From the NCBI GenBank assembly GCA_030149205.1, contig JASBSB010000006.1, positions 600,001 through 632,000 on the forward strand: a stretch of DNA of 32,000 bases, written 5' to 3'. The DNA comes from Candidatus Heimdallarchaeota archaeon. GTDB taxonomy: Archaea; Asgardarchaeota; Heimdallarchaeia; Heimdallarchaeales; Kariarchaeaceae. Shown here piece after piece: positions 1-14,832 of this stretch (positions are counted from its first letter, which is position 1; each line of letters opens with the position of its first letter). The position numbers and the translations under genes were made by a program. Under the pieces are notes generated by a model. That model did no database searches. It was not told the DNA's origin and saw only the letters and a list, made by a program, of their open reading frames with translations.

Positions 1-1
1 C

Positions 2-1243
2 CATATAACCAAATTTAAAGGATAGAGACAATATGATCCTATGAATTTTTCTAAGTGGAAGATTATTATTTCTAAGAATTCTTAACACACCTCTGAAGAC
101 AGACACAAGGTTATCTGGACATGATTTATATCTAAAAAATTTAGTCAGCGTAATAACCAAATCCAAAGGTAAGCCAGATAGAACTGCTTCAACCCCAATT
201 TCAGTAATATAAAGCTTAATTCCTGTATTTGGTCGAATAATTAGACTCTCTAACGGATTACTTTTACTGAGTTTTCTTGATGTTTTAGATAATAACTGAT
301 GAGAAATCAGATTTTGTACCATACCAAAATTTGCAAGCTGAGTTTTAATGTGGGTTTGAATATCAATAGATGATGCTTTGATCATTTCCTTCATAATATA
401 AATATAGATAAGCTGACCCAAACATAGGAAAGGTTGGTTAGTACATCGTTGACAATAAACTCCATCTCCTTTGAGGCTGACTGTGTGTAATCCATCAATA
501 GTTGAAATCCTGATCTTTAAACGAGTAACTTTAGTTAAATCTAAATTATTTATATTCATTTGGTAAAAATTTTGTAATACCTCTTTAAGCTCTCTGAAAG
601 AGTTTATGCCTATTATAAAATGGGTGTCTAAGCTTTCCAACTCGTATAATCTTTTGAAAAATTTCAGAATACCTGTGATCAGGGTGGTGTTAGGGAAGGA
701 ATGTGTAGCGAAAATTACCCGTAGAATTTGTTCTTGAATCGATCTGAATGGAAAAAGAATGTTTGGTATTCGAGGTAAGAATTGTTGTGATTGAGACTTA
801 TCGGTTATATTAACCCCCATCGTATCTAAAATTTTCATTGTGTGAAATTTAGTTAAATTTGATTCCCTGCTCCATTCTTCATAAGAAGATATTTCTGATC
901 CCATAATAGGAGGATCTAAGACAGGTAATTGCTCATCTAAGATTTTTTCCTCAGCTTTGTTTGATAGAACCAATGGGATACCATATAGTTCACTAATGAG
1001 GAAAATGGGAAGGTGTTCGAATTGTAATTTTTCTACCAGAATAAATCTGAGTGAATCTATCTGTTCAATATAATCTGTTAACAGCCCCTTTAGAGTGTCT
1101 TTATACAAAATCTCATTTATCGTAAAGCAATTTATCTCGAATGTCTCTTCTATGATTTTTTGCAGTTTAACAGATGAGGTGATAATGAAGTCATTGTCAG
1201 AAAGATGTTCTATGACTTCTTGAATCACTGGCATAGTCAACAT
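2..1243 (-). CDS. Partial CDS (414 codons, runs off window start), hypothetical; degenerate SWIM-like Cys cluster and a possible winged-helix segment
   Basis: Not in the ORF track. I read the frame manually and found no stop from ATG 1243 to position 2. The ATG overlaps the upstream TGA (TGATG). Motifs: VSLKGDGVYCQRCTNQPFLCLG and LYITEIGVEAVLSGLPL. Confidence 0.8.
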   Translation of the reverse strand, partial: MLTMPVIQEVIEHLSDNDFIITSSVKLQKIIEETFEINCFTINEILYKDTLKGLLTDYIEQIDSLRFILVEKLQFEHLPIFLISELYGIPLVLSNKAEEKILDEQLPVLDPPIMGSEISSYEEWSRESNLTKFHTMKILDTMGVNITDKSQSQQFLPRIPNILFPFRSIQEQILRVIFATHSFPNTTLITGILKFFKRLYELESLDTHFIIGINSFRELKEVLQNFYQMNINNLDLTKVTRLKIRISTIDGLHTVSLKGDGVYCQRCTNQPFLCLGQLIYIYIMKEMIKASSIDIQTHIKTQLANFGMVQNLISHQLLSKTSRKLSKSNPLESLIIRPNTGIKLYITEIGVEAVLSGLPLDLVITLTKFFRYKSCPDNLVSVFRGVLRILRNNNLPLRKIHRIILSLSFKFGYM

Positions 1244-1989
1244 CAAATTACACCTAACTCCACATATCTTAGAAATGTGTCTGGATCCTCTTCTGGGTGA
1301 GACACTACTTGCATCGCTTTTCGATTTCTTAGCTCCATCACAACAAAAATAACCAATTGACTCAGAGTAAGTAATGAGGTATTTTCGAGTCCTAATGCAG
1401 GAACAAAGAATATTGAGCTAAAGATGATCCCAGCTAACATCATTAGTGTTAATGGGTGATCCCTGCCCATTAAAACAAAGACTCCAAAAAGTTCATTTGA
1501 TCTAGGTAATCCAGATATGAAGATTGAGACTATAATATACCACAGCATAAAATAGCTAAAATATACATTAAATCCATTATAGACCAAAAAAAGGATCAGA
1601 TTATCCTGGTAGATAAACAACAGGAGGTCAACAATTATCAAAACATATGGGGCAAAAAGAAAGGTTACCTCAGCCTTGAAATTTTGCCTTAGATTTACGC
1701 CCAGACCTACATATACTCTATCAAAGGTAATTGCAATTCCACTTGTGATATCACCTGAAAACAATCGGACAACAGTAAGTCTAATAAACAGTTTTGAGAG
1801 CGTTCCAATAAAGAATATTCTGTTAAGCAATCTAAACACTGTATCATCATTGTATTTGACTGCTGTAAATCTTAGCAATCTTAGAAATTGAGCAAGAATG
1901 AACTCATGGACAATAGGGAAGAAGAGCAAAGCTAAGAAAAAAGCAAGGACAATATACGAAATCTGATAGACAATGCTTAGATCCATCAC
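1243..1989 (-). CDS. Multi-pass membrane protein, degenerate M50/DUF3267 zincin-peptidase-like (HExxH incomplete)
   Basis: About 6 hydrophobic segments. Motifs IVHEFIL (second His absent), LFAPY and SGLPRSNE. Probable start is ATG 1986. Confidence 0.55.
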   Translation of the reverse strand: MMDLSIVYQISYIVLAFFLALLFFPIVHEFILAQFLRLLRFTAVKYNDDTVFRLLNRIFFIGTLSKLFIRLTVVRLFSGDITSGIAITFDRVYVGLGVNLRQNFKAEVTFLFAPYVLIIVDLLLFIYQDNLILFLVYNGFNVYFSYFMLWYIIVSIFISGLPRSNELFGVFVLMGRDHPLTLMMLAGIIFSSIFFVPALGLENTSLLTLSQLVIFVVMELRNRKAMQVVSHPEEDPDTFLRYVELGVI

Positions 1990-2008
1990 AATTAAAGTGT
2001 GAATTAGT

Positions 2009-2016
2009 TTTATAAA
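2009..2016 (-). promoter_or_regulatory. TATA box (TTTATAAA), leaderless promoter
   Basis: Lies 22 nt upstream of ATG 1986; the same spacing recurs at several genes. Confidence 0.55.
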
Positions 2017-13182: not shown

Positions 13183-13210
13183 TTCTCCTTCCCCCCTCCC
13201 ATCATGATGG
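13183..13210 (-). promoter_or_regulatory. 12-bp perfect palindrome CCATCATGATGG plus G-string and SD (GGGAGGGGGGAAGGAG)
   Basis: Palindrome at 13199-13210; G-rich tract at 13183-13200 on the minus strand, upstream of ATG 13173. Confidence 0.5.
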
Positions 13211-13222
13211 TAAATCTAAGGA

Positions 13223-13458
13223 AATTTGTGAAATTTGTGAATAGAAAGTTCAGAAGTTTAAATAGCAATATCTAAAAATAGTCTAGTAACACTGAAATTA
13301 TTAACTTGATAATTTGTCTAAATTTGACGAAAATTTAAAACCAAAAGACTTCCTAAATTTAAATCGATGAAAAAATACTCACTCAAGTCATATACACAAA
13401 AAATTTGTCATTATGCTTTATCAAGAAGAAGTGAAAAAAATTTGTCAATTAATTTGTC
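13223..13458. repeat. Array of 7 same-strand direct repeats AATTTG(T/A)(C/G), mostly in pairs
   Basis: Copies start at 13223, 13232, 13311, 13321, 13402, 13439 and 13451, in a 387-bp AT-rich intergenic region. Confidence 0.75.
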
Positions 13459-13560
13459 CAATTTTCCCAAAATTTAATAGTGAATCTCAAAGTTATTCAA
13501 CTGATTTTTTATGTCGTATTTTAGTAATACCAAAAATAATTTAGAAGCTACACCAATAAA

Positions 13561-14832
13561 TTAAACTGAGACCTCAGTTTCATCATCATCAAAATCAAAA
13601 TCAACGAGAGGAATATTTGCCTGAGAAAAGAAGGGACTTCTTTCAATCTCTTGTCCCATATGATTAAGTAGGGGCTTGGTTTTGTCATTAATGGCGTCCT
13701 CGACATTTTTCTCAAAATCCATGACTGCCTGAATATCACCAGGATCCACTATTCCATAACTTGTTAGACAATACTCACTCACACTAGGAGGCAACCAACC
13801 ACAATCTACTAAGGTCATTTTTCGAGTAACTGCACCTGTTGCAGCACGTTTTGTTTTCTTTAGACTGAATCTTAGATCAGACGCATGCGAGACTGTATCA
13901 CCACCAACTGGAACTTCCTTTGGTCCCATCATTGCCCCACCAATATTCGCAATTACCTGATTAGTGTAACATGCCAAGATCTCATAGGATTGAGCCAAGG
14001 TTTTAAGTTTAAACAAAACCTGTCCTAACAGACTTTGTCTCTTTCCCATAAATTTTAGTCCATCTCCAGATACCATCTTAAACTCGTTTTTAAAGGGCTG
14101 TATGATAGAATCCACTATGATAAGGCCAATATCTCTCTCTAGAATAAAATCATCTAAGGTGTTTAAATGTGTAAGGAGATCTGATCCTGTTCTCAAAACT
14201 CTTGGACTAATGTAATACATCTTCTTGTGAAAATCTTCTTCTGTCAATCCCCAGTATAATCCACTTTTTAGAATTCTCTGTACTGAATATGCACCTTCAG
14301 TATCTAGATACAAGACAGATTGTCCCCAACCACCTTTCTCCTTTGGTAGCATAACTCTGACTGCAAGATCATACATCCACTGTGTTTTGCCCGTCTGTGC
14401 CTTTCCAAAAAACTCAACCAGGGACCCAGTTCTAAAACCCACACCTGCTCCATCGTTTAGATTTTTGTTCAGTTCAATAACTCGAGTCTCTAGGTATCTC
14501 CTGTTTTTCGTAAGCTCTATCTGATCCTCAAAAGATTGTATAGGATTCCCTTCACTTGCAACAACCAGCTTATGTTCTGCAAGCTTCTTGGCAACCTTCT
14601 CAGAAATATTTGGAATCAGTCCAAAGTCAGCCATCGTCATGTTCTCAATCGCAGCAAAATTTTCTAACCCCTCTCTCTTGAATGACTTCAGTACCTTTGT
14701 ACAGGTAGTGGGTGTTAAGATACCTGCTTTTTTAATCTCCTCAACAAAGTCTTCAATATGAGGTCGTTTTGTGAAAATTGTGCCTTTATACTCAAAGTGA
14801 GTCTTCGGGTTAAATTTTTTCTTCTTTGCCAT
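13561..14832 (-). CDS. radA: RadA/Rad51-family recombinase (divergent paralog) with N-terminal HhH domain and acidic C-tail
   Basis: Walker A GKAQTGKT, LYLDTEG, Walker B IIVDS, TNQV..., GGDTVSHAS. HhH motif LIPNISEKVAKKL. Confidence 0.9.
   Translation of the reverse strand: MAKKKKFNPKTHFEYKGTIFTKRPHIEDFVEEIKKAGILTPTTCTKVLKSFKREGLENFAAIENMTMADFGLIPNISEKVAKKLAEHKLVVASEGNPIQSFEDQIELTKNRRYLETRVIELNKNLNDGAGVGFRTGSLVEFFGKAQTGKTQWMYDLAVRVMLPKEKGGWGQSVLYLDTEGAYSVQRILKSGLYWGLTEEDFHKKMYYISPRVLRTGSDLLTHLNTLDDFILERDIGLIIVDSIIQPFKNEFKMVSGDGLKFMGKRQSLLGQVLFKLKTLAQSYEILACYTNQVIANIGGAMMGPKEVPVGGDTVSHASDLRFSLKKTKRAATGAVTRKMTLVDCGWLPPSVSEYCLTSYGIVDPGDIQAVMDFEKNVEDAINDKTKPLLNHMGQEIERSPFFSQANIPLVDFDFDDDETEVSV

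Follow-up and report, generated by a model that had tools for sequence, protein, structure and literature searches.

A chromosomal gene cluster linking a RadA paralog, an XPD-like helicase and a HerA/VirB4-fold protein without Walker A to membrane and surface proteins in Asgard archaea

The analysed stretch of DNA (the window) comprises 32,000 nucleotides of the Candidatus Heimdallarchaeota archaeon assembly GCA_030149205.1 (contig JASBSB010000006.1, positions 600,001 to 632,000), designated here G000:C2:600001-632000 within a source genome (G000) of 3.3 Mb on 12 contigs. The window contains most of a cluster of 13 co-oriented genes (g1–g13, 24.7 kb in total). By sequence comparison, the linkage of its recombinase, its helicase, its large proteins blank in profile searches and its membrane and surface genes is conserved in relatives, while the order is plastic. 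The reading we favour, with a rough probability of 0.4, is that of an old module that probably arose from DNA-transfer (type IV secretion-like) machinery, is confined to one lineage of Asgard archaea, has long been resident on the chromosome, and couples envelope proteins to recombination enzymes. The large scaffold proteins of the cluster probably derive from ATPases that belonged to a type IV secretion or conjugation-like apparatus and have ceased to bind ATP canonically, and the cluster may handle DNA at the cell envelope.

The list of open reading frames (ORFs) for positions 1–14832 of the window contains 11 minus-strand ORFs of 117–1105 aa. An initial annotation, made from the sequence alone, had described 12 co-oriented genes with five stop/start overlaps; the common orientation was recovered, with 11 ORFs and 4-bp overlaps at four junctions (g2/g3, g6/g7, g8/g9 and g10/g11). 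The remaining intergenic gaps measure 20–387 bp. As anticipated, the array continues past the left window edge, where g11 straddles the border and g12 (1104 aa) and g13 (2120 aa) come next; beyond g13, the gene of ribosomal protein S25e bounds the cluster on that side. According to hydropathy, genes of membrane and surface proteins are interleaved with genes of DNA enzymes along the array. Among g1–g12, sequence profiles recognise only g1 and g8, and no family match was obtained for g2–g7 and g9–g12 in Pfam, PHROGs, NCBIfam or PADLOC. Chance ORFs are ruled out, because ORFs remain long and intact in homologs that share no more than 20–35% identity; the initial annotation had already noted long intact ORFs for the proteins without catalytic motifs.

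Synteny of the cluster holds in each of the other three genomes of the genus (G001:C20, G003:C116, and G002:C14 with C348). On G001:C20 the order is g1, g2/g3, g4, g5, g6, g7, (PolB), g8, g9, g10, g11, g12, where PolB denotes an accessory family-B DNA polymerase, and the same order is observed on G003:C116 and G002:C14 for the parts that these contigs cover. A partial, more distant version was identified in G007 (of the genus labelled g5, a genus label), and in three further genera of the family, as well as on two metagenome contigs, the cluster appears in rearranged form. The conserved gene order on which the initial annotation had staked its proposal is thus found within the genus and is rearranged elsewhere in the family. 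Between G000 and G001 with the other genomes of the genus, identity amounts to 59% for g1, 53% for g8 and 20–38% for g2–g7 and g9–g12, compared with 46–83% for the flanking housekeeping genes. All cluster ORFs are long and intact in the relatives despite this deep divergence.

Outside the genus, the same types of genes recur in other arrangements. In G008, from another genus, profiles detect a RadA-like gene, a gene of the g5 family (1320 aa) and an XPD-like gene in direct succession. In G006, a single 30-kb contig holds PolB, an XPD-like gene, a pair of RadA-like genes, a g7-like gene, and unassigned ORFs of 882 and 1405 aa. Both of the g5-family members that were looked up on metagenome contigs lie beside an XPD-like gene, and on a 977-kb metagenome contig the genes of a 2180-aa Ig-repeat (immunoglobulin-like) protein and of XPD-like, g9-like, RadA-like and g5-like proteins are neighbours. 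In family f3, the XPD-like gene adjoins a g7-like membrane gene and large ORFs. Homologs of g12 were found in G001, G002, G003 and G007. A contig scan with g8, which reaches close relatives only, found none, and the literature on Asgard mobile elements and Asgard replication genes mentions no such cluster. As a separate observation, an XPD-like helicase gene stands beside a giant surface-type protein on L047 (G015:C1:287474-297481; 2646 aa, two transmembrane (TM) segments) and on L019:1-6682 (2180 aa, Ig repeats), and the adjacency of helicase and giant protein may reach beyond the family. On G001:C90 (L013), a second, partial and divergent module encodes g5-like (856 aa), g12-like (563 aa) and XPD-like (701 aa, 25% identical to g8) proteins.

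The link to DNA-transfer machinery comes from g5. An AlphaFold2 (AF2) model based on a 19-sequence alignment (predicted local distance difference test, pLDDT, 69.7) was compared by Foldseek with the PDB, where TrwK/VirB4 of the R388 type IV secretion system was retrieved at 6.9e-7 and HerA at 6.9e-5, and with AFDB, where HerA/VirB4/TraG/TraD clusters were retrieved at 1.5e-7 to 1.5e-4. VIA-align returned the DndH C-domain (Z 14.7), VirB4 (12.5), Cagbeta (12.1), TrwB (11.7) and HerA (11.0), with matches that span residues ~200–520 and align about 275–300 residues; several of them are defence HerA complexes. The TrwK/VirB4 chains align with g5 over 273–369 residues (Z 9.1–10.8), and the resemblance of the g5 N-terminal domain to them is loose, rows that span this domain having a root-mean-square deviation (rmsd) above 15 Å. 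The C-terminal half matches MarR-type winged helix-turn-helix (wHTH) domains. A fold search of BFVD returned generic P-loop ATPases and primase-helicases only. By sequence, a PDB profile search reached AspA at an insignificant E of 0.11, and the g5-family profile found 13 representatives among 1.84 billion proteins, all from its own family.

A Walker A motif (GxxxxGK[ST]) is absent from every g5-family sequence checked. At the P-loop site, the strand-to-helix loop of the family has shrunk to 2–3 residues and only an hhhhxD strand is left; the acidic pair of a catalytic Walker B is missing. None of the 19 sequences of the family has a Pfam family at E <= 0.1, and there is no membership in the DUF87, CagE_TrbE_VirB or TraG P-loop families. 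As no family member has Walker A, g5 is, on its model, an FtsK/HerA/VirB4-fold protein unable to bind nucleotide canonically. The large ATPase-like protein that the initial annotation had listed among its inactive enzymes is therefore recovered as g5, with a VirB4/HerA-type fold.

Directly after g5 lies g6, with one TM segment according to hydropathy, in a position like that of VirB3 after VirB4. This gene is kept downstream of g5 in G001 and G003 and has positional homologs in G002 and G007. A complex prediction for g5(1–530) with g6 scored 0.43, compared with 0.00 for the best of three controls, which lends weak support to a contact; the prediction runs share at least 66% of contacts, with a partner pLDDT of at least 59. 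Of 80 solved complexes, 58 attain the mark applied to such scores, as do 2 of 110 mismatched pairs; with scores <=0.60 it is attained by only 7 of the 80 and by both mismatches. The pass of the g5–g6 pair may reflect likeness only, because a VirB3–VirB4 complex has already been solved. For g12, Atlas features gave weak leads (0.82–0.85) to TraG/VirD4/TrwB/HerA clusters. A relation of g5 and g12 as recent paralogs was considered and rejected, no similarity being detectable between the two sequences.

These features recall type IV secretion in that the g5 model is closest to TrwK/VirB4 in Foldseek and a small membrane protein gene follows it, with the weak predicted contact noted above. Ced and Ted are archaeal DNA-import systems built on a VirB4/HerA-like ATPase, and polytopic membrane proteins and surface proteins, as in those systems and in type IV secretion, are encoded in the same array here. 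Unlike VirB4, the g5 family has no P-loop, gives no DUF87, CagE/TrbE or TraG match in Pfam, and carries C-terminal winged helices. In a further difference, no relaxase, pilin, VirB6 or CedA family was recognised in the cluster. The cluster carries a recombinase and an XPD helicase and, in relatives, also a PolB; to our knowledge, neither type IV secretion nor Ced/Ted systems include these.

The two proteins that profiles do recognise, g1 and g8, keep their catalytic motifs, as the initial annotation had stated, and the motifs are also kept in every ortholog checked. The former matches Pfam Rad51 at 1.9e-36, has intact Walker A (GKAQTGKT) and Walker B (LIIVDS) motifs and carries an N-terminal extension with a helix-hairpin-helix region. 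Walker A and B are kept in all six cluster-linked RadA-like copies checked (g1 and five in relatives). Against the NCBIfam RadA equivalog g1 scores 149 bits, under the 259-bit cut-off, so that by score it is not the orthologous housekeeping RadA; four other G000 loci reach 288–345 bits, above the cut-off, and g1 is the lowest-scoring full-length RadA-family copy in the genome. Its sequence marks g1 as a divergent extra RadA paralog, with orthologs 59% identical in G001 and 49% on L019. The RadA family is expanded genome-wide in G000, with loci at C2:573162, C8:528742, C7:140014, C1:84662 and C4:145273, four above the cut-off and one just below, in addition to g1.

The helicase g8 contains the Pfam domains DEAD_2 and Helicase_C_2, and its GAGKT (Walker A), DEAH box, motif VI and four iron–sulfur (Fe-S) cysteines are all conserved in orthologs. 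These orthologs occur in 7 of 11 genomes of the family at 32–54% identity. Against TIGR00604 (rad3) g8 scores 141 bits, below the 247-bit cut-off, and a second XPD-like copy of G000, on C7, is 28–31% identical to it. The start of g9 overlaps the stop of g8, and a g9-like gene follows the XPD-like gene in G001, G003, G007 and L019.

Between recombinase and helicase, g2 and g3 form a split protein, as one chain of 857–1033 aa corresponds to both in G001, G007 and one metagenome homolog. In the fused G001 protein, g2 aligns with residues 1–375 and g3 with residues ~470–1029. The fold evidence comes from an AF2 model of this fused protein and not of the window's own g2 and g3 (pLDDT 57.8; residues 455–680 poorly modelled). 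Residues 683–1024 of the model match FlaH (Z 9.3), RAD51 paralogs and DMC1 (8.8), and also KaiC, Twinkle, UvsX and DnaB in VIA-align; the RecA-type matches cover 160–185 aligned residues at rmsd 3.4–4.3, and their Z values are moderate. A fold search of the same low-confidence model also matched Rad51/RepA clusters to the g3 part. No GK[ST] motif (Walker A) occurs in g3 or in the fused homolog, and from the alignment and the model the expected P-loop position reads LGD/IGD ahead of a helix. On this low-confidence model, the g3 part of the G001 homolog would be a RecA/KaiC-like core without Walker A. An inactive RecA/KaiC-like fold, of the kind listed in the initial annotation, thus appears in the model of this part of the homolog; for g9, hhalign against RadA paralogs gives 0.2% and so lends no support to such a fold.

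The g2 part of the same low-confidence model (residues 110–350) matches Brf/TFIIB/cyclin chains at Z 7.2–9.1, namely 8ity_V (9.1), TFIIB 5iy6_M (8.2), the TFIIB C-terminal region (7.3, rmsd 3.0 over 93 residues) and cyclin D3 (7.2), values that fall below the level safe for helical bundles and are a hint only. A six-frame PF00382 search of G000 found only its two TFB genes, each with both repeats; hhalign of g2 with these TFBs gave 0.1%, and the N-terminus of g2 has no CxxC of a Zn ribbon. The suggested TFB paralog in g2 is thus echoed by weak fold matches (Z 7.3–9.1) and finds no support in the sequence tests, and a cyclin/TFIIB-like fold of g2 is possible, at most on weak model evidence. A PDB sequence-profile search with g2/g3 returned the Nse1 winged helix at an insignificant E of 0.033. 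In a word-based homolog search g3 and g12 retrieve only themselves, and g2/g3 adds one fused homolog; an Atlas feature search gave no usable match for g3.

The initial annotation had read g3 as a PolB-like protein, an assignment that found no support. It has no Pfam match to a family-B polymerase, hhalign against five PolBs gives 0.1% probability (98.7% in a positive control between PolB paralogs), and neither the SLYP nor the YRLPG string recurs where the homologs of G001 and G007 align with it. The fold search of the low-confidence fused G001 model lists no PolB chain and points instead to RecA-type folds for the g3 part. The analogy drawn with the bacterial imuA-imuB-dnaE2 cassette loses its scaffold polymerase because g3 is unsupported as a dead PolB; the PolB found in three relatives is intact.

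A machine for recombination and repair in the cytoplasm, which in our estimate is somewhat unlikely, would combine the RadA paralog and the XPD-like helicase with a dead RecA-fold mediator and a dead HerA-like winged-helix ring as DNA-binding platform, leaving the membrane and surface genes as mere neighbours, or as co-regulated genes outside any DNA conduit. Its models would be HerA-NurA-Mre11-Rad50, an archaeal end-resection operon, or the Rad51-paralog mediator complexes BCDX2, CX3 and RadB/aRadC. As in the former, a HerA-fold protein is encoded beside a RadA-family recombinase; as in the latter, a RecA-fold part predicted to be degenerate (g3; Z 8.8 to RAD51-XRCC3-RAD51C) lies next to a RadA paralog with intact motifs. 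The most widely kept core consists of RadA-like, g5-like and XPD-like genes (with g9), adjacent in G008 and together on L019, and the nearness of HerA to VirB4 in the g5 comparison (Z 11.0 vs 12.5), the MarR-type wHTH domains of g5, the four further RadA copies above the cut-off in G000 and an accessory PolB inside the cluster of three relatives agree with such a machine. However, membrane genes of the g6/g7 type separate g5 from PolB or XPD in G001 and G003 and follow g5 in G007. A homolog of g7 also occurs close to the g5 gene on the G002 contig and another beside the 1405-aa ORF in G006, and the 4-bp overlaps at g6/g7 and g10/g11 suggest that, within the co-oriented array, membrane genes are translated together with their neighbours. 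The comparison with the HerA operon is further weakened as the HerA-fold g5 cannot bind ATP canonically and the cluster has no NurA, Mre11 or Rad50; no NurA- or Mre11-type nuclease was recognised by Pfam or NCBIfam in the G000 version. Unlike in either model, membrane and surface genes are interleaved in the cluster, and a helical cyclin-like part is joined to the RecA-like fold by fusion or translational coupling.

The accessory PolB (854–863 aa) lies between g7 and g8 or g10 in G001, G003 and G007, and a polymerase of the same type is found elsewhere on the cluster contig of G006; it is missing from G000 and G002. The G001 copy matches Pfam DNA_pol_B at 8e-45 and an exonuclease domain at 5e-21, with YGDTD and SLYPS present, and judging from these motifs the cluster PolB is apparently active. 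It is a third copy, as two other PolB genes occur in all five genomes checked, and it shares 37–42% identity with one of these two.

Upstream of g2, six same-strand SACAAATT repeats are found within 236 bp (13223–13458), out of 12 matches in the 32-kb window, together with a TATA-like ATTTAAAC box in the spacer. The equivalent spacer of G001 contains GACAAAATT/GACAATT-type copies and the same ATTTAAAC..CTGA box. From their sequence, the repeats are a candidate operator or origin-like element for the cluster.

Such iteron-type repeats would also suit a resident or decaying integrated mobile element, conjugative or proviral, whose replication and transfer/adhesion modules are partly inactivated and whose genes persist for the benefit of the element or not at all. 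We consider this unlikely. In its favour, the accessory polymerase is patchy, being present in the clusters of G001, G003, G006 and G007 and not in G000 and G002, a second partial divergent copy exists on G001:C90, the arrangement varies between genera, and most cluster proteins evolve fast, with 20–35% identity within the genus compared with 46–83% for the flanking genes. Nevertheless, every ORF has remained long and unbroken in spite of very deep divergence, a sign of selection rather than decay, and the cluster PolB is closest (37–42%) to a chromosomal PolB of the same genomes. Domain searches found no integrase or transposase domain in the cluster or its immediate flanks, and no att-like flanking direct repeat above 14 bp was detected, the longest word common to both flanks being 14 bp. 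Base composition is ordinary, with a tetranucleotide distance of the cluster at the 75th–85th percentile and a GC content of 34.9% vs 35.5% for the genome. In two species (G000 and G001) the cluster is located next to the same housekeeping genes, with local rearrangement. Single-protein scans of viral contigs (IMG/VR) with g1 and the cluster PolB, which reach close relatives only, found no relative.

Haloarchaeal integrated elements, which carry the fusexin Fsx1 with VirB4/HerA/TraG genes and for which a role in cell-to-cell DNA exchange has been proposed, show that such genes can be combined with surface fusogens in a mobile element (PMC9259645). These Fsx1 islands contain XerC/D recombinases and deviate in k-mer composition (PMC9259645). 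They resemble the cluster in bringing FtsK-HerA-type proteins and large surface proteins together in one archaeal chromosomal island, and differ from it in that the cluster has neither XerC/D recombinases nor deviant composition, and in that no fusexin was recognised among its proteins (g4 and g13 having no fold models). Among the explanations raised in the initial annotation, a domesticated conjugative element is the alternative that would fit the modelled VirB4-like fold best.

Some matches point in another direction, to an island of defence against mobile elements built around the DinG/XPD-like helicase and the HerA-fold protein, comparable to type IV CRISPR-associated DinG, SIR2-HerA and DndFGH/Pbe. 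The best PADLOC match of g8 is the typeIV_DinG profile (1.6e-59), which belongs to the type IV-A-associated DinG but may be merely a general XPD/DinG profile; the top VIA-align match of g5 is the DndH C-domain, with several defence HerA complexes below it, and the fast evolution and patchy presence would fit as well. We regard this explanation as highly improbable. Pfam and PADLOC recognised no gene for an effector (nuclease, SIR2, TIR), for Cas or for modification, and the HerA-fold g5 has no ATP-binding motifs, while the defence HerA proteins known to us are ATPases. We also know of no defence system with a RadA paralog, a PolB and a giant surface protein.

Returning to the favoured module derived from DNA-transfer machinery, we infer its contacts, its movement of DNA and its biological role from the folds, the motifs, the gene order within the genus and the rearranged linkage in the family. 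In the proposed mechanism, g5 and possibly g12 would serve as DNA-binding platforms at the membrane, alongside g6, g7 and g10 as small membrane proteins and g4 and g13 as surface proteins. The Fe-S helicase g8, together with the small protein g9, would unwind DNA arriving at or leaving this envelope site, and the single strand would be coated by the RadA paralog g1. The cyclin-like part and the dead RecA-like fold of g2/g3 may act as a filament mediator, as Rad51 paralogs do, and in relatives the accessory PolB might fill in or extend the DNA.

Several points weigh against this reading. The fold of g5 matches HerA, DndH and TrwB about as well as VirB4, and descent from type IV secretion is not established because of this equal nearness. 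The ATPase fold is the sole hallmark of DNA transfer that was recognised, as profile searches gave no match to a relaxase, pilin, VirB6 or CedA family. Both large ATPase folds are without a P-loop, leaving no obvious motor to move DNA across a membrane. For g12, the profile comparison with g5 (hhalign) was not significant and a PDB profile search returned nothing. The fold model behind g2/g3 is of low confidence and was made from the fused G001 homolog. The giant surface protein is not part of every version and was not seen after g12 on G001:C20, and shared regulation, rather than membership of a single machine, could explain why the membrane and surface genes are linked.

A bolder and rather doubtful form of the proposal is an envelope-anchored apparatus for DNA exchange and recombination, in which a motor-less derivative of conjugation machinery passes DNA on its way in or out straight to a specialised RadA paralog, a mediator resembling Rad51 paralogs, the XPD-type helicase and, in some species, a private PolB, with the giant adhesin providing cell–cell contact. 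No known group is more closely related to eukaryotes than the Asgard archaea. If this bolder form were true, the cluster would represent, in these closest relatives, a prokaryotic precursor of genetic exchange that depends on contact and is coupled to homologous recombination. Handling of DNA at the envelope would make it a new kind of archaeal DNA-transfer or DNA-uptake system, and a purely cytoplasmic role would make it a new recombination mediator complex. Either way, the cluster offers concrete proteins for biochemical work, among them a strand-exchange protein and its candidate mediator, a helicase whose small partner is conserved, and a HerA/VirB4-like ring that would be free of nucleotide. 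It ties divergent extra copies of eukaryote-like enzymes (Rad51-family, XPD-family and PolB) to membrane and surface proteins. Its enzyme folds without catalytic motifs may serve as scaffolds, and dead enzyme folds of this scaffold type are typical of eukaryotic Rad51-paralog complexes.

The features of the cluster are collected in Table 1. Among the membrane and surface proteins, g4 has a signal peptide and C-terminal TM segments according to hydropathy, and its positional homolog in G001 is 22% identical. The membrane protein g7, with 3–4 TM segments and 11 invariant residues, is encoded in the cluster of G001, G002, G003, G006 and G007 and adjoins the XPD-like gene in G013. For g10, 4–6 TM segments were predicted and homologs were found in G001, G003 and G007. 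The initial annotation had described a pair of peptidase-like proteins; g10 and g7 found no support as membrane peptidases, with no Pfam or NCBIfam match, and g10 shows no metalloprotease signature, its HEFIL string aligning with IHYFV and IEMVV in homologs and not being conserved. The surface protein g13 combines Big_1/Ig-like repeats (1.4e-23) with a signal peptide and an anchor at the C-terminus. For g4, g6, g7 and g9–g12, no match to a coupling protein, relaxase, pilin or VirB6-like channel was obtained in Pfam, NCBIfam or PHROG.

Table 1. Genes and other features of the cluster (window positions unless a locus is given).
Feature	Position	Strand	Length	Assignment and basis
g1	13561..14832	-	423 aa	RadA/Rad51-family paralog; Pfam and intact Walker A/B
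Putative control region upstream of g2	13174..13560	-	387 bp	repeats and TATA-like box
g2	11578..13173	-	531 aa	N-terminal half of split protein; helical, possibly cyclin/TFIIB-like
g3	9890..11581	-	563 aa	C-terminal half of split protein; predicted RecA/KaiC/FlaH-like core without Walker A
g4	8694..9776	-	360 aa	secreted or membrane-anchored; hydropathy
g5	5340..8657	-	1105 aa	modelled P-loop-less FtsK/HerA/VirB4-fold domain, then winged-helix domains
g6	4950..5303	-	117 aa	small membrane protein directly after g5
g7	4405..4953	-	182 aa	polytopic membrane protein; hydropathy
g8	2537..4363	-	608 aa	XPD/Rad3/DinG-family Fe-S helicase; Pfam and motifs
g9	2010..2540	-	176 aa	small soluble protein
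g10	1243..1989	-	248 aa	polytopic membrane protein; hydropathy
g11	1..1246 in window; full gene L001:1463-2746	-	427 aa	straddles left window edge
g12	L002:16497-19811		1104 aa	
g13	L002:10098-16460		2120 aa	Ig-repeat surface protein
Cluster PolB (G001)	L010:14743-17307			accessory family-B DNA polymerase
Cluster PolB (G003)	L012:6931-9519			accessory family-B DNA polymerase
Cluster PolB (G007)	L014:8451-11042			accessory family-B DNA polymerase
Cluster PolB (G006)	L039:8238-10874			accessory family-B DNA polymerase

Further observations were made in the surroundings of the cluster. To the left of the window, L002:6870-9287 (C2:586870-589287) is a 2.4-kb stretch with no ORF above 77 aa and a GC content of 38% vs ~35% for the genome; no match to an Rfam family attains the gathering score there, and the stretch could be a decayed gene or an RNA. 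Within the window, positions 19490–22411 encode a 973-aa protein in which an N-terminal RING finger (zf-RING_2, 3.6e-7) is fused to a ResIII/DEAD helicase of superfamily 2. At positions 25380–25466 lies an 87-nt tRNA-like gene with the anticodon loop 'cata' and no ARAGORN assignment, ~1.6 kb from a tRNA-splicing endonuclease gene. An archaeal small-subunit rRNA gene occupies positions 30352–31803, with no large-subunit rRNA gene downstream within the window. Together with this rRNA gene and the splicing endonuclease gene, a eukaryote-type actin (445 bits) and two adjacent Snf7/ESCRT-III genes mark G000 as an Asgard archaeon.

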